A DNA stretch of 64,000 nucleotides. Source: Bdellovibrionales bacterium. GTDB lineage: Bacteria; Bdellovibrionota; Bdellovibrionia; Bdellovibrionales; JAGQZY01. Each line of letters starts with the position of its first letter. Within the stretch, counting starts at the first letter, position 1. Positions 16,270 through 41,035 of this stretch are shown piece by piece. Under the pieces are notes generated by a model. That model ran no database searches and was not told where the DNA came from. It saw only the letters and a program-made list of their open reading frames with translations. Position numbers and translations under genes: made by a program. The stretch covers positions 384,001-448,000 of the forward strand of contig CAXRHT010000002.1 of the NCBI GenBank assembly GCA_964230645.1. Reading direction: 5' to 3'.

Positions 16270-16403
16270 TCCCCATGTCTCCATTTATAATAATTCTCTA
16301 AAGGGCTCTGGTGAGCGTAACGCGTTTTCGCCCGAAGGGCGAAACACCAGCAAGGCAAGGATGCCGGCCCTGAAGAGATTTATTATAAATGGAGGCATGG
16401 GGA
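16270..16403 (+). repeat. Structured palindromic element, copy A
   Basis: Imperfect ~36 bp inverted arms (TCCCCATGTCTCCATTTATAATAA / TTATTATAAATGGAGGCATGGGGA) around a core shared with 20049 and 40883. Confidence 0.85.
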
Positions 16404-16419
16404 GCCGAGGACTTCGATC

Positions 16420-16513
16420 GAGCTTCGACAGGTCCTTCGGCTTCGCCTCAGGACGACAATGCAGGTTCGCCTCAGGACGACAATGCAGGTTCGCCTCAGG
16501 ACGACAGTGGAGG
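16420..16513 (-). repeat. CGTC/TGTC-type REP palindrome with three tandem 24-bp units
   Basis: Minus strand TGTCGTCCTGAGGCGAAGCCGAAGGACC. Unit TTCGCCTCAGGACGACAATGCAGG at 16442, 16466 and 16490 (variant). Near-identical REP at 48230. Confidence 0.85.
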
Positions 16514-16532
16514 CTCGTCTCAGAGCACGATA

Positions 16533-17294
16533 TTATGACATTAAGCTTTTTAAAAAACGAAGAGAGCGTATTCCGAACCAACTAAAAGACTCACCTTCTA
16601 CGAGAGCGGCAGGACGCTTGAGGCTTTTGATCCATTCCATTTCTTCTTTTTTGCCGAAATCATAAGGTTCCGAGGAGAAGAGTAAAAGAGTTTTAGGTGG
16701 AATTTGACTGAATTCAAACTTTGGATAATTTTCATCAAAATCAAAAAGATACTTTCGGTACCCCAGATGAGACAGAGTGTCTCCTATATAGGTCTTTGGG
16801 CCAACGGTCATCATTGGATTTTTCCAGATAATATAGAGAATATGATCAATCTCGGAATCAGGAGGGTGAATCCATTCGAGGACATCGGGGAAATCTTTAA
16901 TACTCTTATTAAAAGTATGGCTAAGAACTTTCTCCCAGGAAGAATTGAATTTCTCCATCTTAATTAAACTCTCTTGGCTTAGCTTATGACCATGCTCTTG
17001 CTTGAGCCATTCTAAAGAGGCGGGCACGGCTTTAAGATCCGAGATATGAGTAGCAAACAAGGGAAGCGAGGTTTTTTCCACCATTTCCTTTCGATTCTCT
17101 TCCTTATCGACCAGCAGAATATCGGCCCGAAGCTTTTTAAGCTTTGAAGCGTTTAGATCTTTTGTTCCCCCGACCACAGCAATGTTTTCCACTTGTTTTT
17201 TGGGATGAATACAGTAGCGGGTACGCCCCACCACATCGAGGCCTAAGTGAATCCATGTTTCTGTCCAAGATGGCACGAGGCTAACCCATTTCAT
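16533..17294 (-). CDS. Helical-backbone metal receptor (BtuF/cobalamin-Fe periplasmic binding family)
   Basis: VSLVPSWTET, VVGRTRYCIHP, VGGTKD, KEEN, SSEPY, GESFSWFG. Start set at the ATG at 17294. Confidence 0.85.
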   Translation of the reverse strand: MKWVSLVPSWTETWIHLGLDVVGRTRYCIHPKKQVENIAVVGGTKDLNASKLKKLRADILLVDKEENRKEMVEKTSLPLFATHISDLKAVPASLEWLKQEHGHKLSQESLIKMEKFNSSWEKVLSHTFNKSIKDFPDVLEWIHPPDSEIDHILYIIWKNPMMTVGPKTYIGDTLSHLGYRKYLFDFDENYPKFEFSQIPPKTLLLFSSEPYDFGKKEEMEWIKSLKRPAALVEGESFSWFGIRSLRFLKSLMS

Positions 17295-17520
17295 AAGAAG
17301 GAGTCTAGCATAGAGGTTAAAGCTAAAACAACGGAACTCTCCCCTGTGCTTTTCTCGCATGTTTGTGCTTAAAGAGGACTTTTAACAATGAATCGAACAG
17401 AAAGTAGACAGTCCTTTGTAGCCAATCCTATTTTCTTTTCAAAAAAATTCCTAGCTATTGTTAAAAAATAGGAAACGTGGAGAATAGGGCAAAATTAATA
17501 ACTCAAACAGGAGAAAACCT

Positions 17521-17859
17521 ATGAAAAAAACTGTGAAAGCAGGATTAGCTGCCAGTGCTTTAGCTGCAACACTCTCTGCGCCCTCAGCCAATGCATTGAT
17601 CATGCCCTCAAATGATAAATTTGAAACCATTAAATACTGTTTAAAAACCTATGGTTCAGAAGGGGCCAAGACAGTGATTTACTGTGATGAGTCTGAAAAC
17701 AACGCCATTAACAAGCGTCCTTTAATGGACAATGGCTGTGCTGAAGAGCAAGTGGCTGTTAACTCCACTCGCAATGTCACTCAAGGCCAAGAGTTCCCCA
17801 TTCAAATCGAAGAATGTGCGGTAAAAATTGATGGTGAAATCGAACCCGCTCAACTTTAA
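17521..17859 (+). CDS. Small secreted protein with 4 Cys
   Basis: AGGAG SD; Ala-rich signal peptide ending ANA; own terminator. Confidence 0.85.
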   Translation: MKKTVKAGLAASALAATLSAPSANALIMPSNDKFETIKYCLKTYGSEGAKTVIYCDESENNAINKRPLMDNGCAEEQVAVNSTRNVTQGQEFPIQIEECAVKIDGEIEPAQL

Positions 17860-17885
17860 TCTTTTTGTAAGAAAATTTTGATAGC

Positions 17886-17919
17886 AAGGCCAAACTCTAA
17901 GAAGGGTTTGGCTTTTTTT
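17886..17919 (+). terminator. Intrinsic terminator
   Basis: AAGGCCAAACTCT-AAGA-AGGGTTTGGC followed by a T-tract. Confidence 0.8.
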
Positions 17920-18715
17920 ATTTGCTTCCTAAAAAGCGAAGGAGCCTTTGGGTTTTATCGTTGACTTTTTTGTGCTCCATCAACTCTTTTGAATAAGGCC
18001 CCGAATTGGGAAGAAATTTTCTAGGATCCGAGGCGTAAAACCTCAGCTGAGGATAAGGATTCTCACCAGAAAGTTTGGTAATTTCCTTAGCCCACTTTTT
18101 AAGACCTATAGGCCCTTCAAACATGGGATCAAGAACAAGGATTTTCTTTCCGGTAAATACAAAGGTCGCCACATGAAATTCCCACACAACCGGAGGAGCT
18201 ACTAATGTTCCAATGGCCCAAACCTTACCGATTCGCTCCTGTGGCACACCCATTTTCAAAAGATAGTAATGGCTTAAAAGCGCTCGGTAGAAACAGTAAC
18301 CTATTTCTAGTTTTTTAGGGTCTCGCTTTTCACTATCACTCAGAAACTGATAGCCCGCGGCCTTTTTAAAAGCTTTTTTAAGTTTTTCAGTAGGAATGAC
18401 AGGCTTATTTTTTTGACTGTTGAGATTCTCAAGCTCACTGAACATTTCTTTATTCGCACTTCTTGCTTGCTCGACTAAAAAAAGATTCCTTTTTTTATAT
18501 TCTCGCCTTGTAAACTTCTTCTTTTCCAATTGTTCAAACCAAGAGGCTTTCTCTAAATTGTACTCAGCCAAAAGGTCTTTTTTTAAATTAAGGCTATGCT
18601 GATCATTTTCAGGTTCTTGGTTGAGCTCTTTTAAAACGGAAACACGAGAACTGTCCTGTTTATGGGCACAAGAGAGCATCAAAATTGCAATCAATAGAAG
18701 TCTAGGCCATTTCAA
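17918..18715 (-). CDS. Lipoprotein with protein-glutaminase/papain-like Cys-His-Asp domain
   Basis: GYCFYRA...WEFHVA...VLDP triad spacing. Probable TTG start at 18715 gives MKWPRLLLIAILMLSC. Confidence 0.7.
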   Translation of the reverse strand: MKWPRLLLIAILMLSCAHKQDSSRVSVLKELNQEPENDQHSLNLKKDLLAEYNLEKASWFEQLEKKKFTRREYKKRNLFLVEQARSANKEMFSELENLNSQKNKPVIPTEKLKKAFKKAAGYQFLSDSEKRDPKKLEIGYCFYRALLSHYYLLKMGVPQERIGKVWAIGTLVAPPVVWEFHVATFVFTGKKILVLDPMFEGPIGLKKWAKEITKLSGENPYPQLRFYASDPRKFLPNSGPYSKELMEHKKVNDKTQRLLRFLGSK

Positions 18716-19820
18716 GGAGATAATCCTCAAGCGTTTTACTGGCGATACCATTAGAAAAAACACTAGTAAGCTCTGCAATAGCCAAAGCCTCTCTTAAATA
18801 AGGTTCAGTCACAAGCCCTACATTTTTAAGAAGGTCTAAAGAGACGGCATCATGCTCTCCCATATCGTTAATCTGCATATGTCGATTCACTAATTTGGCT
18901 GAGTCTTTCAAGCCAATGTCACTTAAAAGCTCACCGAGTGGGTCTTTGCCTGAGAAGTTACTGCGTTCAAAAAAATCAATCAAAAGAGCAAAGGCTAAAA
19001 AGTTTCGAGAGGCACTAAATTTTAGCAAATCCATAATGACTCGAGCGTTGAGGCAGACCTCCACTTTTTCCGCATCAAAGCCGGCCGCTTCAACCGCTTT
19101 AGCCATAATAATGTCATGGCCTTTCTCTTCCTTAATGAATTTCTCAACCTCTTCTTTTGAAGACTGAGCGATTTCAAGAGCGGGCTCCACAGCCTCGATA
19201 CATCGCGAGGTCACATAGTGATTCTGCCTAATAAGGCGAGCGGCCATATCTTGTTGTTGATCATCAGGAAGCTCTCTAACTGTTGTGTAAACTTGCGAAA
19301 CACCCCCACGCTCTTTGACCTCGATCATATGAAACTTTCTTACGGCCGTAAGAACACTCTCAGGACAGTACATCTCGTCCACCGTAGCGAATTTCAAAAT
19401 AGAATCATGGTCCCAGGGAGAGGTGCGAGATTTTAAGGTCATCATGATCTCTTGCTCATCTTCTTTAGAAGCAAAACCTTGCTGCCCCTCTTCTTTTGAT
19501 TGGCAAAGATGATCCACTAAAGTTTTGATCTTTCCATCAACAAAGTTATTGTCTTTAAGCTTATGTTCATCACCATATTTGATGAGAGGAAGAATATAAA
19601 ATATAGGATAACGATCCACCTGCTTAATAAACTGACTAAATATCAGCGCTTCTTCCGGTTTGATAATCTGTTGCTGAATATTATTGTAAATACCCTGCAA
19701 CTGACTGGCCATCGCGGGATCAAGCTTAAGATTCAACTCAATCCAAGGGGTTTTCAAATGAACATCCCCACCACTTGTTTTCATTTCCAATTCTTCGTAA
19801 GGCCAATACTTATAATCCAT
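18702..19820 (-). CDS. Heme-oxygenase-like (diiron) fold redox protein with N-terminal extension
   Basis: QNHYVT, EEKGHD, FFER and HMQINDMGEHD give a His/Glu ligand pattern in a helical domain. Start at M6 after AAGGA. Confidence 0.6.
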   Translation of the reverse strand: MDYKYWPYEELEMKTSGGDVHLKTPWIELNLKLDPAMASQLQGIYNNIQQQIIKPEEALIFSQFIKQVDRYPIFYILPLIKYGDEHKLKDNNFVDGKIKTLVDHLCQSKEEGQQGFASKEDEQEIMMTLKSRTSPWDHDSILKFATVDEMYCPESVLTAVRKFHMIEVKERGGVSQVYTTVRELPDDQQQDMAARLIRQNHYVTSRCIEAVEPALEIAQSSKEEVEKFIKEEKGHDIIMAKAVEAAGFDAEKVEVCLNARVIMDLLKFSASRNFLAFALLIDFFERSNFSGKDPLGELLSDIGLKDSAKLVNRHMQINDMGEHDAVSLDLLKNVGLVTEPYLREALAIAELTSVFSNGIASKTLEDYLLEMA

Positions 19821-20048
19821 GAAAATTCCTTTCAAAAATGAAACCTAGTGTTTCAAAATATCCCCTCCTTGTCCATGCCTTCAAAATCAAGCCACACACC
19901 CTCTAATTTTAGAAGAAACTGCCTAGGAAAACAGCTCTCTGAAAACTCCTATTTTATATAGTACTTCCAGGCACTTACGAGAGTTAATGACACCTCGCCA
20001 ACATTGACTCAAAGACGGCTTAAACGTAGTATCTCCAGCTATATATCA

Positions 20049-20206
20049 CCCGTGGGTCTAGCGTCTGTTCATTTTTTAAGGACAGACCGAAAGTAGTGGC
20101 TCTGGCAAGCTGGAAGCGTTCACCCGTAGGGTGATGCCAGCAAGGCAGGAGCCGTGCCCTACTTGCGGTCTGTCCTTAAAAAATGAACAGACGCTAGACC
20201 CACGGG
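20049..20206 (+). repeat. Structured palindromic element, copy B
   Basis: Perfect 41-bp inverted arms (20049-20089 / 20166-20206) around the conserved core. Confidence 0.9.
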
Positions 20207-20233
20207 CCCGGCCCCATTTACGAGGAGAGTTTT

Positions 20234-21529
20234 ATGGATGCATTACGCCAGCCCCCAACAACCAGCGGTTACAAAGAAGGCGATGTCTTAGTACTATTTG
20301 GAGAACTGTTCTCCAAAGGCTACGCCAATGGCCTCGTCGATGAAGCTAAAAAGAAGGGCTTAAAAATTGTTTACTCCACCGTGGGCCGGAGGGACTCGGA
20401 GGGAAAACTAAGAGCCCTAACAAAAGAAGAGCTCAGTGAGCAACCCACACCATTGATCAATCGACCTCTTGAGGCGGGCTTTGATATGGAGCCCGATTCC
20501 AAAGGTGTTACCCCTTGCGATCAACTCAAGGGTATTAAAATGAAAGATTGGGACCAAGACCACCTCAACTGGGACTCGATTTTAGAGTCGCAAAAAAACG
20601 GGACCGAAAGATTTCGAAAACACGTCACAGCTTATATGGAAGATCTCAAAGAGCATATTCCCAAAGGGGCCAATGTTTTATTTGCTCATATTATGGCTGG
20701 AGGAGTTCCAAGAGCAAAAATAATTATGCCCGTTATGAACAAAGTTTTTAAAGGTCGAGGCGATCGCTTTATTCCTTCTAAAAGTTTGTTTGATTCTCAG
20801 CTTGGAAAAATGAGTCAGCTCAACTTCAGTGACGTCACAGCCCACACCTTCAAACATCTTGTCGAACTCAGTGCTGAAATTCGAGAGATGGTTGAGTCCG
20901 ATGGTGGTCAGGTCAGCTACACAGCCTACGGTTATCATGGGACAGAAATTCTTATTGATGGAAAGTATCAGTGGCAAACCTATACGCCTTATTTTCAAGG
21001 CTGGGCCAAGATGGAGCTTGAAGAGCATTGTAAAAACTTTTTTGAAAAAGGCATTCGCTGTAGTGTCTACAACTGTCCAGAAATTCTGACTAATTCCTCA
21101 AGCATTTTCCAAGGTGTGGAAGTGTCCCTTTATCCGCTTTTAGGGGCGCTTAAGAAAGAAGGAGCGGATTCAAAAAATTGTCAGAAAGTCCTCGATGATT
21201 GTCGCAAACTTTTAAAAGAAGACCATAGTTTTGATGAAATTATGGAATTCACTAGCCAGTACTGCAAACACGATCTTATCACCTCCCATAGTCATTTCGA
21301 TCAGTGGCCTCAGCACAACTCTCAAGACCAAATGGAGTATATGTTAGACTCTTCTGATCACTTGATTTCTATGCACAAAGACCCAAAAGAGTTAATGACC
21401 TTTCCATTATCCGAAGAGGTTTTTAAGGCCACAGGCGAGCTCATTTTTCACGACTCCTTCGCCCCGCAAAGTCCAGTGCAGTGGCTCAACCACGACGTGG
21501 TCGCAAAAACGATTGCAAAACAGGGATGA
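20234..21529 (+). CDS. fabMG: Enoyl-ACP reductase, FabMG family
   Basis: GDVLVLFGELFSKGYANGLVDEA, TVGRRD, PLEAGFD, AHIMAGGVP, YGYHGTE, WQTYTPY, NCPEILTNSS; recognised from memory of the family. Confidence 0.7.
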   Translation: MDALRQPPTTSGYKEGDVLVLFGELFSKGYANGLVDEAKKKGLKIVYSTVGRRDSEGKLRALTKEELSEQPTPLINRPLEAGFDMEPDSKGVTPCDQLKGIKMKDWDQDHLNWDSILESQKNGTERFRKHVTAYMEDLKEHIPKGANVLFAHIMAGGVPRAKIIMPVMNKVFKGRGDRFIPSKSLFDSQLGKMSQLNFSDVTAHTFKHLVELSAEIREMVESDGGQVSYTAYGYHGTEILIDGKYQWQTYTPYFQGWAKMELEEHCKNFFEKGIRCSVYNCPEILTNSSSIFQGVEVSLYPLLGALKKEGADSKNCQKVLDDCRKLLKEDHSFDEIMEFTSQYCKHDLITSHSHFDQWPQHNSQDQMEYMLDSSDHLISMHKDPKELMTFPLSEEVFKATGELIFHDSFAPQSPVQWLNHDVVAKTIAKQG

Positions 21530-22371
21530 GTCTAGCGCAAGGCTTACCCTGGCAGTGGAAGCAGCTCTCCTTTAACGGCTACAGTATAGCGGGGCAAACA
21601 ACCTCGCTTTTTTTCAATAACGCCAAAATTTGCTTCGACATTGGCCAAGGTCTTCCCTTTAATATCAACGCCAAACTTTATTGTCTCACCCACCTCCATG
21701 CCGATCACGGTGCAGGTATAAATTACTTACTCTCCCAGCGCTCCCTTTTTGGCTTCCCAACAGCCCCTATTCTTCTTCCCCAGTCGGCTGTTGATCCCAT
21801 TTTTAAAATACTCAAGCAGTGGGAAAAAATTGAGGGTTTTAAGTTTGATTTTGAACTTATTCCCATGAAAGCAGGAACTCGGTTTGCTTTTTCAAAGCAG
21901 TATCTTATTGAAGCCTTTCCCACCAATCACCGCGTGGAGTCCTTTGGATACCTAGTCTATGTGAAAAAAAAGAAATTAAAAAAAGAGTTCTTAGGGCTTG
22001 AGAGACAAGAGCTCTTAGACTTAAAAAGTCGGGGGCAACTTTTAGAAGAGGATGTTCTCGAACCAAAGATGGCTTTTACCGGGGACACCAAAATTGAATT
22101 TCTTCAGAACCATAAAGATTTATCCCGTGTGGAGCTACTCTTTATGGAGTGCACTAACCTCGACGAAAAAAAGTCGATCGAAGACACTCGAAAATGGGGA
22201 CATACTCACCTTGATGAAATTATTGAGAAGGCTTCTTTTTTTGAAAACGAAAAGATCAGTTTAATTCATCTTTCCGCCAGATACTCCAGCAAAGAGGCGG
22301 AAAAGATTTTAACGGAAAAACTTCCAGAAAGCCTCAGAGAAAAGGTGAGCCTTTTCCCACGTCCCTTTTAA
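21526..22371 (+). CDS. rnz: Ribonuclease Z (short tRNase Z, metallo-beta-lactamase fold)
   Basis: THLHADH, HRVESFGY, FTGDT, ECT, GHTH, HLSARY; ATGA overlap with the upstream gene. Confidence 0.8.
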   Translation: MSLAQGLPWQWKQLSFNGYSIAGQTTSLFFNNAKICFDIGQGLPFNINAKLYCLTHLHADHGAGINYLLSQRSLFGFPTAPILLPQSAVDPIFKILKQWEKIEGFKFDFELIPMKAGTRFAFSKQYLIEAFPTNHRVESFGYLVYVKKKKLKKEFLGLERQELLDLKSRGQLLEEDVLEPKMAFTGDTKIEFLQNHKDLSRVELLFMECTNLDEKKSIEDTRKWGHTHLDEIIEKASFFENEKISLIHLSARYSSKEAEKILTEKLPESLREKVSLFPRPF

Positions 22372-22794
22372 TTACTGATTTGGAAGAATAAGATATTGAG
22401 AAAAGCCCCACTCTTCTGCTTTTTCCAAATAGACCTCTTGAAAATTGACCCTTTCTTCAGGATCTTGACTGAGAGACTTTCGGTAGTAATTATCAAGCAC
22501 CCAGACAGCCGAAGCGTAGCTATTTAAAACATCCACTTCCAAACATTGAGTGGCTGTGGCTCGACCAAAATTGAAGAGGGCCAAGTTCGGACAATCTTGC
22601 ATATAAGTGGTGCGATCAAATTCGACTCCAACATTTTCGGCGTGTACAGAAAAAGCTCCGCCCATCGCCCAATTTTGCACCTCTTGGAGTACTTCCATGG
22701 TGTATGGAGGTACATAGGACTCTTGGCAATTCCCCTTAACTGCCAAGGCCCCTTGAGAAAAAAATAAAACCATTAAAGAAAAAATCGTTCGCAT
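22372..22794 (-). CDS. Secreted hypothetical protein
   Basis: Signal peptide ending ALA; AGGGA SD. Confidence 0.75.
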   Translation of the reverse strand: MRTIFSLMVLFFSQGALAVKGNCQESYVPPYTMEVLQEVQNWAMGGAFSVHAENVGVEFDRTTYMQDCPNLALFNFGRATATQCLEVDVLNSYASAVWVLDNYYRKSLSQDPEERVNFQEVYLEKAEEWGFSQYLILPNQ

Positions 22795-22985
22795 TGCTGT
22801 TCCCTGTGTGAAGCGTTTCTAGCAATAGCCGTGACCAAAGCCAAATTTAATATTTCTTCCACAAGCATAAGATTAAGTTATAGTAGCGGTTTCCATATAC
22901 ATAGGACTGCCTATAATTTTGATAAATTTAACGAAATTCTTACTGTAAATATCGAGATTTCTTTGGTTTTTTTCAAATAGAGACC

Positions 22986-23012
22986 TCAATATTTTTATCC
23001 CATCACCGATAA
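22986..23012 (+). promoter_or_regulatory. Putative sigma28 (FliA) promoter
   Basis: TCAA-N15-ACCGATAA versus consensus TAAA-N15-GCCGATAA; 6 nt before ATG 23019. Confidence 0.55.
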
Positions 23013-23018
23013 GACCCT

Positions 23019-23684
23019 ATGGGCTCTTCTCGAAACTCCTTTCTATTATTATGTTTATTGATAGGAATAATACCTTTTCAAGCCTGTATGCGCTCAAGCC
23101 CCAACGCTCAATTGGGACAGTCTTCATCAGTTACCTATGATACGGAAATCGATAAGCAGGCCCTAAAACTTTTTGCCGAAAGTTGTGACTCCTGTCATGG
23201 GTCTTCCTCTCCTGGTCTTGGAGGCTTAAACAATACCGACAATATAAAGGCCTTAATTGAAGGTGGTTATATTGTTCCCGGTGACGTCAGTGGCTCTCCC
23301 CTTTTTGAAGAGGTAGAAAGTGGCTCGATGCCACCAAGCTCCCCTCTGGGAGCTCCGGATCGGGAGTTTCTGGCTACTTGGATTGAATCCCTTACCGATC
23401 GTAGTGATGATGCCAGTCAAGCCCCCGTTGAATCAATTACTTTCACTAGACTTTTCAACGAGGTCATAGGTCCCCGCTGCACCACCTGTCACGACTCAAA
23501 TCACGTCCTTCCCCTTCATGATTATGAGAGTGTACGTGAAATTGTTTGGGCGGAAAGTCCTTCAGTGAGCCTTCTGTGGAGCTCCCCGGCTGCAGGCCGA
23601 ATGCCAAAAACGGGACCACCACTCACCGCCTCGGAACTTAAGAAGATCAGTGATTGGATAGAACTTGGAGCTCTTAATAATTAA
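23019..23684 (+). CDS. Di-heme c-type cytochrome lipoprotein (two planctomycete-cytochrome-like domains)
   Basis: CDSCH and CTTCH, each followed by G-x-MP and WIE; FQAC lipobox-like motif. Confidence 0.85.
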   Translation: MGSSRNSFLLLCLLIGIIPFQACMRSSPNAQLGQSSSVTYDTEIDKQALKLFAESCDSCHGSSSPGLGGLNNTDNIKALIEGGYIVPGDVSGSPLFEEVESGSMPPSSPLGAPDREFLATWIESLTDRSDDASQAPVESITFTRLFNEVIGPRCTTCHDSNHVLPLHDYESVREIVWAESPSVSLLWSSPAAGRMPKTGPPLTASELKKISDWIELGALNN

Positions 23685-23690
23685 GAGCTT

Positions 23691-25217
23691 TTAAGACTTC
23701 AACATATAATCTAGAATTTTAGCGTCTTTTGTGTCGGGAAAACTTCTCGCTAAGGACATATCCATGCGCAGAGCCTGCATTAAAGTCATCCATAGATCTC
23801 TCCCCGCCACTCTTTGGTTATTTCCACTCACACCATTTGCGACAGGACGTCCAGAGTCATCGGGACGATGGTAAAAATATTTTGTTCCTTGGTTGGTGAC
23901 ATTGCCATAATAACCGCCTTTGATTTGACCTCCGGCGAGAATCGCACCATTTTTACCTTTACTTCCGAAAGAGTTGGCTTCCATCCCCCGGCCACCATCG
24001 GTGGTGAAAATTGCAATCACTGTTTCATTCCAAATGCCCGCAGTCTTTAAGGCATCGATCATTTTAGAAAGTGGGTTAGAAACCTGTTTGGCTTGTGCCC
24101 TAAAAAGTTTTTCCGGACGATCGCCATGGACATCAACATAGTCGAATTCGAGGGCCACGGTACGTACTATATCATTGGTAATAAGTTTTGTTGCAAGTCC
24201 TGCTTGTTCCCACAGCCAGGCTTTGCTGCCACCTCTTCCCATTTCCGGAAAATCATTACGCCAGTGATTTCGTTCAGCACTAGAGAGAGCCAATTGAAAA
24301 TTATTGGGAAGCCCCCCTGCCCCGGTACTGGCCAGGCGCTTTTGCACACCTTGTAATTGTTTTTCGTGATCCGAATGAGCATTGCCATCGTAACGGAAAT
24401 TATTAAGGTAGTTTTTATCGACTTTTTTAATAAGCTGTGTGATCTGATTGGAAAAACGACTGTAGTTAGGCGCCGGTCCGGCGTTGCCAGAGGTAGAAAA
24501 GGCTTTCTCTAAGTCACTGGTCGACTGATAGCGATCAGGATCGGCTCCTGCTAGGTTTCCAGAATAGTGGTACACAGTATGAATACTGCGACTAATTCCT
24601 TTATAAATGACACCATTTTTTAGACTCGAATCGGCTTTTTTGCAGACGTAGTTATGAATATTAGCCGGTGTGGGACTGGAACTATAATGATCACCATTAC
24701 CGGAGAGTTTGGAATTGGGATCTTTTAAATACATCTTCTCACGCCCCGGCCCCGAATTGTAGCCTCTTCCTGGAGAGCGAGTGGCGTTTCCTCCTTCGTG
24801 TCCGTGAATGGGACCCACTGAGAGCTCACAGGTTTCTAAAACAGCGATATCATCCAGATGAGGTCTTAGAACTTGTCCCTCATCGGGAAGGTAAAAATTG
24901 TTACCCGCTTGCACCAAAGAGTCCTGACTTTGCGCCAGTCCCACCTGATCTCCAGAGAATCCTCGTGTGATATTACCGGTGGCAATTCCTGGAGGCACAA
25001 AAAGGTGTGTCCAATCAAATTGGTCTCGTAAATTGATTTCGATAAAATAGCGTGGCAATACGGCCGCTTGCGCATAAGCTTTCTTCCCTAGCAGTATTTC
25101 CTGACAAGCCTCTTTTAAGCCCGAAGGTGCAAAGGGAAAGAGTGTGAATAAACTTAAAGCTTTTAAGAACTCTCTTCTTTCATTGGGAGCCATATTTTCA
25201 AAATCTTCAAACTTCAT
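23691..25217 (-). CDS. Tat-exported DUF1501/DUF1552-like protein
   Basis: RREFLK twin-arginine signal ending AYA; YVDVHG, TDGGR, AGGQIKGGYYG. Confidence 0.7.
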   Translation of the reverse strand: MKFEDFENMAPNERREFLKALSLFTLFPFAPSGLKEACQEILLGKKAYAQAAVLPRYFIEINLRDQFDWTHLFVPPGIATGNITRGFSGDQVGLAQSQDSLVQAGNNFYLPDEGQVLRPHLDDIAVLETCELSVGPIHGHEGGNATRSPGRGYNSGPGREKMYLKDPNSKLSGNGDHYSSSPTPANIHNYVCKKADSSLKNGVIYKGISRSIHTVYHYSGNLAGADPDRYQSTSDLEKAFSTSGNAGPAPNYSRFSNQITQLIKKVDKNYLNNFRYDGNAHSDHEKQLQGVQKRLASTGAGGLPNNFQLALSSAERNHWRNDFPEMGRGGSKAWLWEQAGLATKLITNDIVRTVALEFDYVDVHGDRPEKLFRAQAKQVSNPLSKMIDALKTAGIWNETVIAIFTTDGGRGMEANSFGSKGKNGAILAGGQIKGGYYGNVTNQGTKYFYHRPDDSGRPVANGVSGNNQRVAGRDLWMTLMQALRMDMSLARSFPDTKDAKILDYMLKS

Positions 25218-28638: not shown

Positions 28639-28641
28639 AAA

Positions 28642-30219: not shown

Positions 30220-30271
30220 GGTAAAAATTCGCTGAGTAAAGAAGGCCTTGGAGGCCTTCATTTAGCCAAGA

Positions 30272-30511: not shown

Positions 30512-30620
30512 TATCTAACTCCTTTTTTGAACATGAAATGGTACGAACCTAAATATTGTTGGATATTTAGATTCTTATCAACTTTAAAAAAAAGTAACGC
30601 ATGGTCGAAAGTCGAGCTGC

Positions 30621-31778: not shown

Positions 31779-31781
31779 GTC

Positions 31782-31910
31782 TTACCTCTGCGCTTGATAC
31801 AAGGAATGGGAACTTGTAGGCTGGGTGGAATGAGACAGCGTGCAGTTTTGAAACCACAATAGAGCTATTAATCCTAAAAACCCCAATAATGATATTTGAT
31901 AGCGTTTCAT
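31782..31910 (-). CDS. 42-aa micro-lipoprotein (below the ORF-track cutoff)
   Basis: Manual translation MKRYQISLLGFLGLIALLWFQNCTLSHSTQPTSSHSLYQAQR*; GGGGGA SD upstream; same FQNC motif as 43717. Confidence 0.7.
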   Translation of the reverse strand: MKRYQISLLGFLGLIALLWFQNCTLSHSTQPTSSHSLYQAQR

Positions 31911-32014
31911 TTCAAATCCCCCAACCCATAATGATACCTACTAGAGGGATTTTTGCAAGACTAATTAAGTTTTAATCCATACACATTTATAACTTAAACC
32001 AAGCTCATTTCACT

Positions 32015-33292
32015 TCAAGGATGTTTTGGATAAATTTTTTCTATTTCTGGTAGAACATTTTGTAATGACTGATTTCTAAATTTATCCATTTTTGCATTCC
32101 ATTCAATAAACTTTTTCTCAAACTTTTTTTGCTCACCCGTATTAAGCATCTCCCAACAACTCTCAAAAAGTTTAAATCTCTCTTTATTGACGGGGCCATA
32201 CTCGCCAGTGAAATAAAGATCTTCTCTTTCCTTAATATAATTTAAAATTTTTATTTTTGTTTCTTTTCTGACCGCGGCTGGAAGAGCCTCGACCCTCAGG
32301 GCTTCAGGATAATCCATGGAGATAAAGTAAGGAAAAACAGCCGCCTGATCCTTAAACTGCGAAAGGTAATCCATAAGCTCCGTGACCCTTAAGATCGACA
32401 AGGCTTGGAAGACGGTGTGAAATTCCATATAGACAGGAACTTGTGACTTTAAGGACAACACTTTTCGAATATTGGCATCCACATCCTGCCATTTCGATGG
32501 ATAACGAATATAGTTATTAAGCTCCCCCACAGCCTCGATACTACAATTGATCTGCACACTTTTAAAATGAGACCAGTGCTCCAGCAATTGGTCTGGGAGA
32601 TGGGTTAGATTACTGTGATAACGAAGAGAGACTTTTTGAGCCAGCCCTCTTTGAATTAACTGTTCAAGTATATAAAAATGCTGGCGACTTAAGAAAGGCT
32701 CACCACCAGTAAAGAGCATCTCTTCCACATGATTAAAAACCCGATCCATGAGTGAGCGAAATCGATCGTTGAGTTTCCACTGCGTTCGAGCCAAATGAGT
32801 TTGCTCTTTATCAAAGGAAATATTCAACTCTTCAAATTCAGAGACCATCTTTTGGCTAAACATCGGAGCACACATACGACACTGTAAATTACAAAGATTC
32901 CCCAAGGCGAAGTCGAGATACAACACTTCAGGCTTTACTGCCCCCCTCCAAGAGGTCTCTTCAATCTTTTCTTGTAGCTCTTTTTTCCAGAGTTTGAGAT
33001 AGACCTGTCTTAAAGAGTGCCCTCCTTTTTCCTCAATGCTGTAACACTTTGTGCAGGTGAAGGGCTTTTTGCCTGCAAGCATCTCTCTTCGCACTTTTCT
33101 CAAAAAAGAGTGATTGAGAGCTTTCTTGGGATGATCAATCTGACTAAGATAAACCCTCTTTCCCCTTCTGTTAGTAAATATTCCCTCTCCGGCAGTGTTA
33201 CAACAAACTCTGAGGCTGCCATCAGTGTTAGCACTTAGGTGAATCCAGGGAAGGGGGCAAAGTGTTTTCGAAGCTTCAGACTTTTTGGCCAT
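32015..33292 (-). CDS. Radical SAM protein with N-terminal twitch/SPASM-like Cys cluster
   Basis: CPLPW..CC..CTKC, then CNLQCRMC, TGGEP, YIRYPS. Start set at MAKK (33292). Confidence 0.9.
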   Translation of the reverse strand: MAKKSEASKTLCPLPWIHLSANTDGSLRVCCNTAGEGIFTNRRGKRVYLSQIDHPKKALNHSFLRKVRREMLAGKKPFTCTKCYSIEEKGGHSLRQVYLKLWKKELQEKIEETSWRGAVKPEVLYLDFALGNLCNLQCRMCAPMFSQKMVSEFEELNISFDKEQTHLARTQWKLNDRFRSLMDRVFNHVEEMLFTGGEPFLSRQHFYILEQLIQRGLAQKVSLRYHSNLTHLPDQLLEHWSHFKSVQINCSIEAVGELNNYIRYPSKWQDVDANIRKVLSLKSQVPVYMEFHTVFQALSILRVTELMDYLSQFKDQAAVFPYFISMDYPEALRVEALPAAVRKETKIKILNYIKEREDLYFTGEYGPVNKERFKLFESCWEMLNTGEQKKFEKKFIEWNAKMDKFRNQSLQNVLPEIEKIYPKHP

Positions 33293-33578
33293 TAAAATCT
33301 TTTGTGTTTCTATAAATTTTTTTATCCAGCAAAAAGGGGCCAAAGGGAAGGACTGAGGATAAAAGGGCTAGTATCAATCGTTTCAAGCCCCAATCTTTTT
33401 CAGAAGAGACATAAAAAGCAAAAAGGACAAAGAGAATAAAAAGTCCTCCATGAGCCATACCAACCCATCGAACGTAGATCGGCTCTCCTGCGAGGTACTT
33501 CATTGGCATAGCCGCAAACAAAAGAAGAAGAAACGAGAGCCCTTCAATATATCCCAGTGTTCTTAGTTTTGATTCCAT
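33276..33578 (-). CDS. DUF3817-type small membrane protein
   Basis: EGLSFLLLL..AMPMKY, GMAHG, LPFGPF. Confidence 0.85.
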   Translation of the reverse strand: MESKLRTLGYIEGLSFLLLLFAAMPMKYLAGEPIYVRWVGMAHGGLFILFVLFAFYVSSEKDWGLKRLILALLSSVLPFGPFLLDKKIYRNTKDFNGQKV

Positions 33579-33611
33579 AAACTCTAAAATGACACAATTT
33601 GGCCCCCTTGA

Positions 33612-34079
33612 CTAGCGCCGCCTTGGATTCGCCACAAGAAAAACGCGCCCCAAAGCCCCAGCGATCGATGTCGCAACATCAATAAGGAAAATACTGAGCG
33701 AGGGGCTATTTCCTGACCTAAATTGCTTTAACTTTTGGTTCTGAATCCAAAATTTTCGAACCAGATGACAAAAAAAAGGATCGAGAAAATCGCTGCGTTC
33801 CAAAAGGCCGATGCTGGGACCTAAAATGAATTGATATCCCAGAAAAACCGATTGTCGGTAGTTCGGAGCCACATGGTGAGTTTCAAAGAGGTATTCTTCA
33901 AGAGTCAATTTTTTCTTACAATACAAAGACCAACAGATTGAGGCTTTCTCACTCACATCCGGGTCTTTTAATGGTTGAGAAGACTCAGGAATGAGAAAAC
34001 CTGGAAGACAAAGGACTAAACAAAAGGGCAGCCAAAACAAATGAAAGACAAAGTATAGTGTCCAATAGAGGAGCTTCAT
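33612..34079 (-). CDS. Hypothetical membrane-anchored protein
   Basis: Overlaps the SDR stop codon (ATGA); hydrophobic N-terminus. Confidence 0.6.
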   Translation of the reverse strand: MKLLYWTLYFVFHLFWLPFCLVLCLPGFLIPESSQPLKDPDVSEKASICWSLYCKKKLTLEEYLFETHHVAPNYRQSVFLGYQFILGPSIGLLERSDFLDPFFCHLVRKFWIQNQKLKQFRSGNSPSLSIFLIDVATSIAGALGRVFLVANPRRR

Positions 34080-34867
34080 TGGCTGTCGCGGCTAAAATAG
34101 GACTGAATCGTTTTTTTAAAAAAACCGGGGAAATAGCGCGCCATCTGCACCCCCCAATAACTATTGCCGCTGGGAAGACAAAAACTCTCATCCTCTTTGA
34201 TAGCCTTAAAAACCTTTTTGGCCCATTTCTCCGCCGGGATCGATGAGAGAAACTTTAAGTCCAGATGACCAGAGTAGAGCTCACTGATATCGTCAAACAT
34301 TCTTGTCTTTACCCCAGGAGTGATCAAAGTAAGAGTGCTCACCGAAGTCGCCTTTAGTTCAGCACTCAGAGATTCGGTAAAAGCAATCACTCCGGCTTTA
34401 CTAGCAGCATAGGTCGAAGCACATGGGAAAGACATATAACCCGACACGGAGGCATTGTTGATGATTTTGGCCTCAGGCCTTCCTAACAAATGAGGAAGCA
34501 TGACTTGAGTGAGGTGAATCAAGCCCGTAAGATTCACCTGAAGCATTTTATAAATGTCGTCTGGGTCTTGCTCTTCCAGGAGTCCTCCAGTGAGCTGTCC
34601 TGCGTTGTTAAAAAGAAGGTCACAGTGCTCCCCTGAACTGTTAAACCTTTCAAAGAACTGCTTTATATTCTGACTCTCTGAAAGGTCGAGCTGCCAAGTT
34701 CTAACATCCTCAGCCCCTGCTTTTTTTAGATCGTCTTCAAGACTCTTATCCATAGAACGAATCACAGGATGGACTTTCATTTTGTTACGAGCCGCCTCGA
34801 GAGCCATGGCTCGTCCGATCCCTCGATTCGCACCGGTGATAAAAATGTTTTTACCTCTCAAGTTCAT
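34076..34867 (-). CDS. Short-chain dehydrogenase/reductase
   Basis: TGANRGIG, NNAG, YAASK. Confidence 0.95.
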   Translation of the reverse strand: MNLRGKNIFITGANRGIGRAMALEAARNKMKVHPVIRSMDKSLEDDLKKAGAEDVRTWQLDLSESQNIKQFFERFNSSGEHCDLLFNNAGQLTGGLLEEQDPDDIYKMLQVNLTGLIHLTQVMLPHLLGRPEAKIINNASVSGYMSFPCASTYAASKAGVIAFTESLSAELKATSVSTLTLITPGVKTRMFDDISELYSGHLDLKFLSSIPAEKWAKKVFKAIKEDESFCLPSGNSYWGVQMARYFPGFFKKTIQSYFSRDSQ

Positions 34868-35286
34868 AAATCGCCTCTCAATGCTATGTAAGTAAACAAA
34901 ACGGCCGCCTTAATCGTCCATAAAAAGGTTCGTGGCCAATTGGTTGAAATTAACTTTTGAATACACTTTCGATCAAACCCGTTCTTTACTAATTTTTCGT
35001 GGAAGGGAACGGAGACAAAAAAAGTGAAACCCCAAAGCAGTAGAACAACGAGTAATAGAAGAGCAAAAATAGAACCCGGGTTTTGCCATAAAAGCCAGGC
35101 TCCTGTTAACAGCTCTAAAATCATCGCTGGTCCCACCAAATAGAACATCTGCCTTTGGTGAAACCTGTGAAATTTGGAGAAATAGGCCGAGTCGATGGAA
35201 AGAAAACTGGGGTAATGCACCAACTGAATGGTCCAAATCATTCCCAATAAATACCAAGTGATGAAAGAGTGAAACAACAAGAGCAT
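34864..35286 (-). CDS. Four-helix membrane protein (DUF1772-like)
   Basis: WTIQLVHYP, VPFH, NWPRT; hydrophobic helices. Confidence 0.75.
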   Translation of the reverse strand: MLLLFHSFITWYLLGMIWTIQLVHYPSFLSIDSAYFSKFHRFHQRQMFYLVGPAMILELLTGAWLLWQNPGSIFALLLLVVLLLWGFTFFVSVPFHEKLVKNGFDRKCIQKLISTNWPRTFLWTIKAAVLFTYIALRGDL

Positions 35287-35346
35287 GCCTTATTTTAGAC
35301 ACACCCTCGTTTTTGTTCAAGATCTTTTGAACTTTTGTAGATTAAA

Positions 35347-36747
35347 TCACATTTGACGAGCGCGTTTTGAGACAGCTAGAGCCGCTTCCCTCATCACTTC
35401 CGCTAAAGTAGGATGGGCATGAAAGCTTAGTGCAATATCCTCAGAACTTGCACCCATTTCCATGGCCACCACAGCCTCAGCGATCATATCAGAAGCCCTT
35501 GGACCCACTATATGCACGCCTAAGACCTTGTCTGTCTTTTTGTCCGCTAAAATCTTAACTTTACCGTCAGTGGAATTCATCGCTTTGGCTCGTCCGTTGG
35601 CACTGAAGGGAAAACTCCCGCTGGAGTACTCAATACCAGCCTCTTTGAGTTCCTCTTCCGTTTTACCAACTCCAGCCACCTCGGGCCAAGTGTAGATCAC
35701 CCAAGGGTTGGTGTTGTAGTTAACGTGTCCATAATTACCGGCCAGGTGTTCCATTAAGGCCACACCCTCTTCTTCGGCTTTGTGAGCCAGCATCGCTCCA
35801 CCAACAACATCGCCAATGGCATAAATTCCGTCCACATTGGTCTTAAAGTGCTCATCCACTACCACTTGATCGCGATCGTTAAACTCCACACCGCACTCTT
35901 TTAAACCTAAGCCATCAATAAACGCTTTCCTTCCAACAGCCACAAGAACCTGATCGCCTTCGATCTGACCTTTTTCGCCATCTTTTAAGGATTCATACTC
36001 AAGCTTTACTTTGGTTTTTAAGGCTTCCCCACCGGTTACTTTGGTGGAAAGCATAAACTCCATGCCTTGTTTTTTAAGAATTTTAAGGAGGTCTTTTGAA
36101 ATCTGTTTGTCCATAGGCCCACAGATTTTATCAGCAAATTCAATCACTGTGACCTTAGCCCCAAGGCGCATCCAAACAGAGCCCATCTCAAGTCCGATGG
36201 CTCCACCGCCAACAACAATCATATGCTTTGGAACTTTATCAAGCTTAAGAGCTTCAGTGCTTGAGATGATATTCTCACCATTGAATTTTAAAAAAGGAAG
36301 CTCCACAGGAACAGAGCCTGTAGCAATCACAATATTTTTCGCTTCAATGACTTGTTTTTTCTCACCACTGACTTCCACTTTACCAGGCTCAAGAATCTTG
36401 CCGGTGCCTTTAAAAGTGGTGATTTTATTTTTATCAAAGAGGTATTTAACACCTCCAGTGAGCTCGGAAACAACTTTATCTTTTCTCTTCATCATATTGG
36501 AAAGATTAAGCTTTACTCCGGAAACATCGATTCCATGAGTTTCAAAATCATGCTGAGCCTGATGAAAATGCTCGCTGGAATCAAGAAGAGCTTTTGAAGG
36601 AATACACCCAATATTAAGGCATGTCCCTCCAAAGGTGTCATCTTTTTCAACCACGGCTGTTTTCAATCCAAGCTGAGCCGAACGAATCGCACCAACATAG
36701 CCCCCTGGGCCCGAACCAATAATTACAACATCAAACACTTCAGCCAT
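35347..36747 (-). CDS. lpdA: Dihydrolipoyl dehydrogenase (E3)
   Basis: GSGPGG, GGTCLNIGCIPSK, MLAHKAEEEG, HAHPTLAE. Confidence 0.98.
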   Translation of the reverse strand: MAEVFDVVIIGSGPGGYVGAIRSAQLGLKTAVVEKDDTFGGTCLNIGCIPSKALLDSSEHFHQAQHDFETHGIDVSGVKLNLSNMMKRKDKVVSELTGGVKYLFDKNKITTFKGTGKILEPGKVEVSGEKKQVIEAKNIVIATGSVPVELPFLKFNGENIISSTEALKLDKVPKHMIVVGGGAIGLEMGSVWMRLGAKVTVIEFADKICGPMDKQISKDLLKILKKQGMEFMLSTKVTGGEALKTKVKLEYESLKDGEKGQIEGDQVLVAVGRKAFIDGLGLKECGVEFNDRDQVVVDEHFKTNVDGIYAIGDVVGGAMLAHKAEEEGVALMEHLAGNYGHVNYNTNPWVIYTWPEVAGVGKTEEELKEAGIEYSSGSFPFSANGRAKAMNSTDGKVKILADKKTDKVLGVHIVGPRASDMIAEAVVAMEMGASSEDIALSFHAHPTLAEVMREAALAVSKRARQM

Positions 36748-36764
36748 TTCTTTCCTCTTCTTTT

Positions 36765-38039
36765 TTAAACCTGTAACAAAATTCTTGATGGATCTTCAAT
36801 ATTCTCTTTAATGCGAACAAGAAAGCTCACCGACTCTTTACCATCGATCATGCGGTGATCATAAGACAGAGCCAAATACATCATCGGTCGGATTTTGATT
36901 TCATCTCCCACAACGACCGGTCTTTTCTCGATCTTATGCATCCCTAGAATTCCACTCTGTGGAGGATTCAAGATCGGTGTCGACATAAGGGAACCGAAAA
37001 CTCCACCATTGGAAATGGTAAAGGTTCCCCCTGACATATCATCAATACTTATTTTTCCATCTCTAGCCTTAACAGCATAATTCTTAATATTCTGCTCGAT
37101 CTCAGCCAAAGTCATTTTCTCAGCATTTTTCAACACGGGAACTACGAGGCCTTTTGGAGAACTCACCGCCACACCGATATTAAAGAAATTGTTGTACAAA
37201 ATATCGGTTCCATCGATCTGGGCATTCACAGCCGGGAACTCCTTGAGAGCTTCGATCGTGGCTTTTACAAAAAATCCCATAAAGCCAAGACGCACATCGT
37301 GTTTTTTCTCGAAGTCTTCTTTGTACTTGTTGCGAAGATTCATAAGGGCTGTCATGTCCACTTCGTTGAACGTGGTAAGAATGGCCGCTGTTTGCTGAGC
37401 ATTAACCAGTCTCTCTGCAATTTTACGACGAATGGTGCTCATTTTCACGCGCTCGGTGGTTCCCTCTTGAGGTTTTGGAGCGGACTTCGAAGGGGCTTCT
37501 TTTTTAGAAGACTCCTCTTTTTTCGGCTTAAAGTTCATCACGTCTTCTTTAGTGATACGCCCACCAGGACCTGAGCCCTCAATTTGAGAAGGATCAATTC
37601 CTTTTTCATTCACCATTTTTCTAACAGCAGGGCTTAAGTGATCGGTGTCCGCAGCAGAAAGCCCGGCTCCACCACTTCCTTTAGCAGGAGCTTCTTTGGC
37701 TCCACCCGATGAAGCGCCATTAGAGCCACTAGAAGACTGAGACTTCTCTTCTTTTTCAGAATCATCTTCACTGCTGGCTTCTTTTTTATCACCACCAGCC
37801 GGGGCTTCAGCACTGGTATCAATACTTCCAATAACCGCCCCCACTTCGACAGTGTCGCCCTCTGCAGCCTTATGAGAGAGTTTACCGGCTCCTTCGGCCA
37901 CAACTTCCACACTGGCTTTATCTGTTTCTAGACTTAAAATCACTTCGTCACGCTCGACAAAGTCTCCGTCCGATTTGAGCCACTCTCCAATTTCTGCTTC
38001 TGTGATTGATTCACCCACTTCTGGTACTTTGATATCCAT
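36765..38039 (-). CDS. sucB: 2-oxoglutarate dehydrogenase E2
   Basis: Lipoyl ETDKA, E3-binding domain, [10 protein letters not shown]. Confidence 0.98.
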
Positions 38040-40774
38040 CAGCGACTTCCTTTCTTAGTATTAAAAACGTCTTCCACAATTTGTTGCTGTTCTTTTTTGT
38101 GCATCGAGGGTGAGCCCGTTGCCGGTGAGGCTCTAAAACCTCGCCCCACATAGCTAAGCTCGGCTTTTTTCATTCCCGCCGCACTCATGGAATCCCTCAA
38201 AGGAGCATTGATGTAAAACCAAGAGCCCATGTTTTGCGGCTCTTCTTGGGCCCAAACGACCGACTTCACATTTTTTGCCTTCTTAAAAATCTCAGCAATC
38301 TTATGCTTAGGGTAAGGATAGAGTTGCTCCACTCGGATCAAAGCGACCTTAGCTTTTTCTTTATCAGAGAGCTCTTCTTCCCTATGAGCCAAAAGATCAT
38401 AGTAAAGCTTGCCGCTCACTAGCGCTAACCTCTCGGCTTTTTCAATGTTCACATCGTTATCAGTGAGTACTTCTTCAAAGTTTCCACTGGTGAGCTCATC
38501 AAGTTCACAAACCACCTTCGGATGTCTCAATAAAGATTTGGGAGACATCATCACAAGAGGCACTCGGAAAGGTCTCTTCATTTGACGTCTCAATACATGA
38601 AAGAGTTGTGCGGGAGTGGTCACATTGCAAACCTGCATATTTTTCTGAGCACAGAGCTGCAAAAATCTCTCAAGTCTTGCGCTTGAGTGCTCAGGCCCCT
38701 GCCCTTCATAACCATGAGGCAAAAGAAGAGTCAGTCCGCTCATACGTAACCACTTCTGCTCGCCACTGGCTAAGAATTGATCGATGATAATTTGGGCTCC
38801 ATTAGCAAAATCACCAAACTGAGCTTCCCAGATTGTCATAAAGGTGGGGTCAGAACTAGAGTTACCGTACTCAAAACCCACAACTGCCATTTCTGAAAGA
38901 GGCGAGTTGTAAACACAGAATTCTTTGTCCTCTCTGAGCTCTGCCAGTGGATTGTAGCGCTCGGCTGTATTGATGTCATAAAAACAGGAATGACGGTGTG
39001 TGAATGTTCCACGCACACAATCTTGCCCTGAAAGGCGCACACTGTTGCCTTCGACGATCAAGGTTCCGTAAGCCAGAAGCTCTGCCATCCCCCAGTCGAG
39101 AGGCTTTTTACCTTCCACCATTTCTTTTCTTTGAGAAATAAGTTTCTGAAGCTTTTTGTGAACATTAAAGCCTTCAGGAACTGTGGTGAGCTTCTCGCCG
39201 ACTTCCTTAAGATTTTTCTTAGTGGTTTTGGTTTCAAAGGTCTGTTTAAAGTCTTCGTCTTTACTGCGACGAAGGCCCTTCCAAAGTCCTCCGAGAGTCG
39301 GGATCTCGGTTTCAGGAGGCTTTTCTCTGACTTTCTCTAAGACCTTTTGCAAATTATCCATTTTCTCTTGAAAGAAGTTATCCATGAACTTTTCGTCCAC
39401 AGCTTTTTCTTGAACAATTTTTTTATTGTAAAGGTCTTTGACTGTCTGATGATCTTTGATGGTTTTATACATCACCGGCTGAGTGAAGGAAGGCTCATCG
39501 CCTTCATTGTGCCCATAGCGCCGATAGCAAGTCAGATTGATAAAAATATCAGAACCAAACTCTTGCCTAAAACGTACAGCGATATCCATGGCTCTTACAC
39601 AAGCTTCAGGGTCGTCCCCATTCACATGCAGAACGGGAATCTGTAAAGACTTTCCAATGTCCGTCGCGTAGGGCGAAGAGCGAGTTTGTTCGGGGTCCGC
39701 AGTGAAACCCACTTGGTTATCGATAACAATGTGAATGGACCCACCCACGGTGTAGCCCTTAAGCCCTGAGAGCTGTAAAGTTTCAGCCACCACTCCTTGA
39801 CCGGCAACCGCGGCATCCCCATGAATTTGCACGGGAATGACTTTCTTCCTTTTTTCCGTGTCGTTTCTTTGGCGTTGTTTCGCTCGGGTCATACCACAAA
39901 CCACAGGATTCACCGCCTCTAGATGAGAGGGGTTAAAAGCCAAAGAGACATGACAAGTGCCATTTTTCGACTTTTTATCCGCACTGTGCCCTAAATGATA
40001 TTTCACATCCCCATCAAAATCGTCGTCAGCAAAAGAATTGCCATCAAAGGCCGCCAGAGTTTCTTCAATGGCCCGGTCCATAAAATTCACCAGAACATTC
40101 AGGCGCCCTCTATGAGCCATACCAATAACAATCTCTTCCACACCAAGCTCAGAGCCTTTTTCTACAAGGTGTTCCAGTTGAGGAATCATAGAATCCGCCC
40201 CCTCAATGGAGAACCTTTTAGCCCCCACAAAGCGCGAATGTAGAAATTTCTCTAAGGACTCTGTTCGACAGAGTTGCTCTAAAATGGCTTGTTTCTTTTC
40301 TTTGGAAAAATCCTTGGATGAGTTTTCAAATTCTTTATAAAACCACTCACGAATACCGTGCACAGCATCAGAAACCTGTACACTCAAGGTTCCGCAGTAG
40401 CTTCTTTTGAGATGATTAATAATCTCTCTAAGAGTGGCTCCTTCCATTCCGATGAGTGAGCCTACCGTAAATGATTTATCCAGATCACTTTCCTCGAGAT
40501 TGAACTGAGAGAGTTTGAGATCATCGCCTCCCTGATTAGCGTCACTCAAGGGATCGATATTGGCCTGAAAGTGCCCATAATCCCGATAGGCCTGAATAAG
40601 ATGGTAAACATCAAGCTCTTTGCCAGAAAGAGAGCCTCCCAAATCCTGATTAAATTCCACTCCGGCGAAAAAAGCCTGCCAACTCTCCTCTAGTTCCGAT
40701 GGATTATTTTGATAGATCTCGTATAGATTTTCTACGTACTCCATATTAGCACGCTGAATGCCGGTGAATTTCAC
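38039..40774 (-). CDS. sucA: 2-oxoglutarate dehydrogenase E1
   Basis: [36 protein letters not shown]. Confidence 0.98.
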
Positions 40775-40882
40775 AAAAGACCTCGCTGCGGTTGAATTTA
40801 TGCACTACCTAATACCTTAATTCTAGCAGCTAGAAAAGACCCGTTGCAGGCCTGCTGGACATAACCCGGCCCTCGGTGGGGC

Positions 40883-41035
40883 CCATTGGAAATTTGCGTC
40901 TTGTTTTCGGAGATTTGCTCTAAAAAAAGGCACGGCTCCTGCCTGGCTGTCATCGCCCTTCGGCCGAGCGCGTCCCGCTTGACAGAGCCTTTTTTAGAGC
41001 AAATCCCCGCAAAAAGAGCCCCCAACTTCCAATGG
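40883..41035 (-). repeat. Structured palindromic element, copy C
   Basis: Imperfect arms (CCATTGGAA...GATTTGCTCTAAAAAAGGC / GCCTTTTTTTAGAGCAAATC...TTCCAATGG) around the conserved core on the minus strand. Confidence 0.85.

Follow-up and report, generated by a model that had tools for sequence, protein, structure and literature searches.

The DNA analysed here (in the following, the window) is a stretch of 64,000 nucleotides from a Bdellovibrionales bacterium (contig CAXRHT010000002.1, positions 384,001 to 448,000, of GenBank assembly GCA_964230645.1) and forms part of its 3.78-Mb genome, designated G000. Between its genes lie three elements—A, B and C—in which a short folded core is carried on a long self-complementary stem (Table 1). 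A preliminary description, made from the letters of the window, had listed their positions and helices, and all three were re-located at the same coordinates. They are members of a set of 53 elements with four core types in G000. We read these elements as an intergenic hairpin family of the Bdellovibrionales, with a covarying core on a stem of 30–60 bp that would serve as a single-stranded DNA (ssDNA) site for a putative host protein, with arms rewritten by template switching and with rare spread similar to that of repetitive extragenic palindromic (REP) sequences and REPINs; the chances for and against this reading appear to us evenly balanced. It starts from what is observed, namely a family with a common fold and one preferred strand, vertically inherited, the core being constrained at each site, the arms changing in pairs and copies being gained or lost.

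Table 1. Features of elements A, B and C (positions in the window) and sites of a nested hairpin (positions in G000)
Feature	Position	Strand	Remarks
Element A (type A)	16270..16403	+	Stem of 34–37 bp around a branched core; arms 82% alike across the nine type-A copies of G000
Core of A	16304..16369	+	66 nt; two three-way junctions; tip triloop GAA
A with outer extension	16263..16425	+	Short conserved words just beyond both arms, common to types A and III
CGTC/TGTC-tagged short palindrome (16430–16458) with truncated tandem copies	16430..16532	-	Such a repeat adjoins 9/9 type-A copies
Element B (type I)	20049..20206	+	47/49 arm columns paired; copy-specific arm; divergent intergenic gap
Core of B	20098..20158	+	61 nt; tip triloop GTA
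C-rich 3' tail of B	20207..20215	+	Also present after the stem of most type I and II copies in G000
Element C (type I)	40883..41035	-	Inner stem intact, outer arm decayed (38/47); flanked by lgt and the gene for 2-oxoglutarate dehydrogenase E1
Core of C	40929..40989	-	61 nt; single G-G mismatch
C-rich 3' tail of C	40871..40882	-	
Nested 43-nt hairpin	C1:142820-142993; C1:733423-733596; C3:591701-591874; C3:486890-487108		

Core, stem and preferred strand

In G000, 24 matches were obtained with a profile of the three cores and 25 with a covariance model (R1) that was derived from 32 cores with the arms left unpaired (150 of 525 candidates scored), the latter comprising 11 copies of the type of B and C (type I), nine of the type of A, four of type III and one variant. 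In an inverted-repeat scan of G000, type II was found, with an unbranched, covarying core of 78 nt, a GNA tip and 27 copies plus one divergent copy (e.g., C1:119254-119437 and 27 other sites, loci L046-L065); it is more abundant than the type described first. The multi-copy family that had been proposed from A, B and C is, thus, borne out by further copies with preserved pairing, located by covariance-model scans of G000 and its relatives.

Among the 32 type I/A cores, of which kin copies are not independent, 95.7% of the cells pair and 12 of 21 pairs are altered on both sides, a result that none of 500 shuffles matched; slid registers of the same alignment pair at only 30–44%. Since at least one two-sided change falls in each helix, covariation extends from the three helices for which it had been claimed to all five of the B/C core, and the proposed two stacked three-way junctions are supported. 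On 109 R1-aligned matches, an alignment that leans towards the model, 19/21 pairs carry two-sided changes. In the type II core, 21/42 pairs are changed two-sidedly and 94.6% are paired. The DNA folding z-scores of A, B and C versus dinucleotide shuffles are −12.0, −17.6 and −7.8, respectively, with 0/200 shuffles equally stable. The self-complementarity of B over 41/41 positions was confirmed, the 41 perfect pairs following one mismatch close to the core, as was the G-G mismatch of C, the outer arm of which is additionally decayed.

Type I and II arms reach 40–59 bp past the closing helix and are 93–95% self-complementary (496/533 in type I; 1249/1312 in type II). Their stem ends sharply, with A-rich DNA before it and, in most cases, a C-rich tail after it. 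Arms of different copies are related but far diverged, being 34% alike in type I (11 copies; 27% when shuffled) and 36% in type II (25% when shuffled). Hence, the earlier statement that arms differ between copies stands for type I, but fails for A, whose arms belong to the nine-copy subfamily of high likeness, each member of which adjoins a palindrome of the CGTC/TGTC type that is accompanied by truncated tandem copies. Four elements (three of type A and one of type II) have a 43-nt hairpin, another small mobile repeat, inserted in the core.

G-T/T-G mismatches of the arms outnumber A-C/C-A mismatches by 146 to 45, indicating that one strand is preferred, and the strand given in the preliminary description is the more stable one in 42/42 copies with DNA parameters and in 37/42 with RNA parameters. 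Tip loops (n = 102) are triloops in 89 cases and GNA in 67, while GNRA was not encountered; in type II, 24/26 tips are GNA. According to a published account, GNA mini-hairpins are very stable as DNA, their RNA counterparts being far less stable, and are found in phage and plasmid priming signals (PMC13037366). Given these GNA triloops and the lack of GNRA, DNA is favoured over RNA, in line with the earlier suggestion of a folded ssDNA.

Distribution, genomic position and turnover

Within the Bdellovibrionales, R1 matches 40/151 genomes from 6/13 families, with at least 29 matches in the richest genome; these per-genome counts are floors, as 29 candidates were scored per genome. In a phylum-wide draw, 12/151 genomes were matched, five of them outside the order, one of which lacks the long stem and looks spurious. 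The type II model matches 14/151 genomes of the order, with a long stem in 17/17 folded loci. An arm of at least 20 bp, a feature outside the model, is present in 138/144 type I-like copies of other genomes (median 35) versus 4/264 shifted control windows. Searches beyond the phylum were made with strict patterns only; that for the core gave 12 matches among species-representative genomes, all in Bdellovibrionales or its families, and that for type II a single metagenome locus. Several of the 12 core loci are identical to ones in congeners of G000, which puts G000 in that order. The element is present in complete single-contig genomes of the order and was not matched in searches of plasmids, phages and viral contigs. 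Arm length looks lineage-specific (~30 in G002/G008, ~50 in G000), and one copy in G142 has an arm that is perfect over at least 85 bp (L082:1420-1670).

The neighbours are housekeeping genes, among them a few for repair enzymes, and include no transposase, recombinase or HNH gene (Pfam scan of 96/158 neighbouring frames). As noted before, orientation relative to the neighbouring genes is mixed across the G000 copies, but it is non-random, the tail side facing a gene end in 32/52 copies versus 36% expected (p 0.0002). In relatives, 52/138 copies have a facing stop codon no more than 30 nt away on their 3' side and 26/138 on their 5' side; relative to the nearest gene end, the folded strand is therefore antisense more often than sense. 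Facing stops occur on both flanks in 58/138 of these copies, and both neighbours are antisense to the folded strand in 21/52 copies of G000. For type II, 20/27 copies are on the C-rich strand, a count confounded with gene direction.

When sites of relatives were mapped to G000, 53/59 were empty, some with abutting genes, so that copies are gained or lost between species. The remaining six were filled (2.6% expected, p 0.004), often with another core type and in either orientation, which suggests that sites are reused. The gap upstream of rlmN is filled in four genomes, with differing core types (G000 C3:675707-675850; L045, L118, L262). That copying happens is evident from partial tandem copies, mosaic arrays in G074 and the expansion of type A. 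In four DNA sequencing runs of one study, neither A nor B had a cleanly empty site, contigs being prone to drop rare variants. Horizontal transfer to G139 was dismissed, its cores being no closer to B than those of the congener G011.

Conserved cores and rewritten arms at orthologous sites

The congeners G002 and G008 possess 23 and 24 matches, at least 14 of which are orthologous. Across 13 pairs, cores are 96% identical and arms 79%, compared with 56% and 64% for the flanks and 52% for four-fold sites of the neighbouring genes. Gene conversion among copies is an unlikely cause of this conservation, because the orthologue is strictly the best match in 10/14 cases and paralogous cores are only 83% alike. 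Judged from these alignments, the core is likely selected in place at each site. Such site-by-site conservation, a point absent from the preliminary description, points to a host function and not only to selection for mobility.

The 86 changed arm pairs include 58 two-sided ones, where 15 would be expected if changes were independent, and 51 of the 58 remain Watson-Crick. Compensation via G-U intermediates should favour transitions; the double changes in 10 in-register pairs (four pairs with indels or short arms were dropped) comprise 27 transitions and 25 transversions, none of them within the inner 6 bp. Concerted change is also seen as a matched one-base indel in both arms (L121/L122) and, in other genera, as one substitution carried in both arms (L086/L092) or as arms that are perfect yet nearly unrelated, on one core (L081/L091). 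Instead of being interchangeable modules, as had been proposed, the arms are inherited and rewritten in place.

Furthermore, an arm sometimes mirrors the end of the neighbouring gene, as polymerase template switching would give. At L010, L035 and L088, perfect pairing continues for 6–9 bp across stop codons that have kept their position and last codon in G000; the other nine of 12 arm-frame overlaps examined are weak or uncheckable. At L010, the occupied gap exceeds the empty one by 138 bp, less than the 157 bp covered by the stem, from which it follows that ~19 bp of one arm are native and mirrored. Switching of the template between inverted repeats has been described as a way in which arms change in concert (PMC5941160).

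Proposed explanation, rival readings and related repeats

In the reading that we prefer, the stable core would fold when its strand is exposed during replication or repair and draw the arms together. A polymerase that stalls or folds back could then copy one arm from the other, letting the arm sequence drift while pairing is kept, and copying may sometimes continue past the arm into the flank. A putative shape-reading protein—our guess is a nucleoid, replication-restart or repair factor—would give each copy a use and hold the core constant. Rare new copies might arise by a REP-like single-strand route, perhaps borrowing the enzymes of neighbouring repeats, an idea for which the association of type A with the CGTC/TGTC-type repeat is a hint.

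Several points weigh against this proposal. The arms evolve more slowly than neutral sites (79% vs. 52–64%); thus, selection on pairing also acts, and the matched arms are likewise compatible with two-step compensation. A single pair of species underlies the orthologue statistics. Strictly one-way arm copying was rejected, since partial tandem copies lie 3' at seven loci (six events) and 5' at two, which amounts only to a trend, and overlaps of arms with open frames occur on either side (13 and 8). A bias towards the lagging-strand template is absent overall (21/52 copies on the G-rich strand, p 0.21). Neither a binding protein nor an enzyme that would mobilise the element was found, and none of the empty sites is close enough to define exact ends, the one G008/G002 empty site being too diverged. 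G-T pairs are compatible with RNA as well as with DNA, and csrA is present in G000, which, together with a last loop that is GGA in 101/108 copies, would suit RNA.

These last points lead to the reading of the element as a structured RNA cassette, the core being cut from read-through or antisense transcripts by means of the long stem or acting at mRNA 3' ends, its GGA loop binding CsrA and its arms needing only to pair. Csr/Rsm-binding RNAs carry several GGA hairpin loops. Covariation, selection in place and the facing stops on both flanks would also fit such a cassette; we nevertheless consider it rather improbable, as the tips are triloops without GNRA, the other small loop is TGA in 71/102 copies and GGA in just 29/102, the last loop is CGA in five copies, and the folded strand tends to be antisense to the nearest gene end. 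The Rfam comparison that had been advised showed no family above the gathering threshold in the window, with only sub-threshold generic hairpin matches on elements of 12 loci and in the A–B region. Alternatively, the dispersed copies, their gain and loss, the tandem and partial copies and a 3' tail conserved within G000 could mark a purely selfish, non-autonomous element that is selected only for a dedicated enzyme acting in trans (HUH/RAYT, Ssn-type GIY-YIG or HNH). An enzyme acting in trans had been proposed. HNH endonucleases are suggested by G074, where 22/28 loci carry the element, but none of the 29 best loci of other genomes (one each) does, and G000 is without a match to the G074 protein and without a credible element match beside its own two HNH genes. 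Y1 transposases match in 117/151 genomes, yet not in carriers such as G007, G047, G071 and G040; the best Y1 locus of 30 genomes holds no credible element match (30 of >600 Y1 matches examined), and the two RAYT-like Y1 genes of G000 (L001:1471-2121, L002:1135-1797, C2) are flanked by a separate GGTACC-containing repeat with 26 seeds genome-wide. For small GIY-YIG proteins, CGTC-type repeats like those adjoining type A flank the genes in G051 and G123 (L392:906-1199, L393:954-1280), forming Ssn-like units at 2/10 order-mate loci; however, R1 has no match at 10 short-GIY-YIG loci, tblastn gave no homologue in G000, and the sole GIY-YIG frame found there has 635 aa. Apart from the G074 HNH gene and an IS30-like frame, genes between close element pairs include no transposase, and the published class 3 HUH motif, present at 74 viral-contig loci, yielded no usable protein query. 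Selection on moving copies alone would be insufficient, because copies that stayed in place while neutral sites diverged to roughly half saturation retain 96% of the core along with the variants peculiar to each. Taken together, the selfish reading seems unlikely to us.

It could also be argued that the core alone moves and that each insertion creates new arms from the target by inverted duplication of the flank. The native gene ends mirrored at L010, L035 and L088 agree with this, as does the finding that only 5/42 arms have any 16-mer in common with another place. We regard fresh arms as very unlikely, though, given that paralogue arms are more alike than shuffles, especially in type A, with words at fixed positions; that arms are clearly related within G010 and within G011; that arms overlap no called stop codon in G000 (gene calls made in the present analysis); and that captured native DNA is confined to the outer 6–19 bp. 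An ordinary transposable element of the miniature inverted-repeat type (MITE) or terminator, to which long inverted repeats, frequent convergent-gene placement and a T-rich flank on one side might point, is already largely refuted and scarcely credible. The terminal repeat is not conserved, a direct repeat of at least 6 nt at the ends is found in 1/42 copies only, the interior is conserved and orientation is mixed, in agreement with the earlier rejection of a MITE. Bacterial MITEs share the size, the long stem-loop and the lack of coding capacity, but keep terminal repeats and target duplications, neither of which is present here (PMC3184786). Integron attC sites were also considered and set aside; these occur one per gene cassette, in an array, whereas the present copies are single and lie between unrelated housekeeping genes (an integrase was not searched for).

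Among known systems, the closest in distribution is that of REP/BIME/REPIN sequences and RAYTs (PMC3116915, PMC8266576), which are likewise extragenic, multi-copy, near gene ends and vertically inherited, with single-strand hairpins, compensatory stem changes and tandem and nested clusters. REPINs, however, conserve the outer ends and vary the inner spacer, while the present family keeps its tip and lets the outer stem vary. A REP foot of the GTAG or CGTC type is absent, type I and II ends consisting of the A-rich 5' flank and the C-rich 3' tail, although short outer words are common to types A and III. In short, the family works like a REPIN in distribution but fails in foot, conserved ends and a flanked RAYT. 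The palindrome beside type A resembles CGTC-tagged REPs (PMC3733652) and Ssn/SRM repeats (PMC11893778), but is a separate repeat, its exact seed lying within 250 bp of 0/144 copies in other genomes; the published SRM pattern, in our own coding, has no match in A, B, C or the neighbouring repeat (PMC11893778). Hairpins associated with class 3 HUH enzymes share atypical secondary structures and CnGA-like words, which types A and III carry at the foot, but are simple hairpins of 26–30 nt and of other sequence (PMC6006769). In template-switch correction of inverted repeats, both arms also change together, with extension into the flank; the published cases concern short repeats with short spacers, as opposed to arms of 30–60 bp, a folded spacer of 55–80 nt and dozens of sites here (PMC5941160). 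The C-G-closed GNA loops recall the mini-hairpins of the phage G4 origin, ssiA and N4 promoters, which are protein-read single-strand signals, but single-copy ones of phage or plasmid replication or transcription, unlike a dispersed family (PMC13037366). We therefore describe the family as a REP/REPIN-like repeat of inverted architecture with signs of host selection on a DNA fold, undescribed in the literature searched (subscription papers lay mostly outside the search) and of unproven function.

Whereas bacterial repeats are usually read as selfish, with conserved ends, drifting ends and a near-constant folded tip at each site suggest a DNA structure used by the host. More speculatively, and with considerable doubt on our part, these elements may be domesticated DNA-fold signals, i.e., dozens of branched ssDNA folds per chromosome on stems that replication itself writes and renews. 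In predatory bacteria, a putative host protein would read them, for restart, priming or the anchoring of the nucleoid, and they would spread with no dedicated transposase. If true, this would make them the DNA equivalent of a family of structured non-coding RNAs. The orthologous pairs provide a record, both natural and countable, of concerted evolution by template switching over arms of 30–60 bp, and binding partner, expression and repair route are open to study in cultured Bdellovibrio, if a strain carries copies.

Some further observations concern the surroundings of the elements. The CGTC/TGTC-type palindrome has 245 seeds across G000, and further such palindromes with truncated tandem copies lie at 48098-48240 of the window. 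One type-A element and one decayed relative sit entirely within an inverted pair of these palindromes (L401:265-590, L402:250-460, C2), a possible route of type-A spread. In G074, an HNH gene of 266–282 aa is present in ~30 copies that act like a mobile unit, many of them apparently inserted into arrays of hairpins (L127:877-1722, L133, L165-L193). The unit has ends of its own, the right one coinciding with the stop codon, and a conserved word ~270 bp upstream; homologues of the gene are present in 84/151 genomes of the order. Between two element copies of G069, a c-di-GMP-I riboswitch was identified (75.5 bits; L074:1278-1358). Finally, the window encodes, at 9123-14429 on the minus strand, a frame of 1768 aa without an NCBIfam match.

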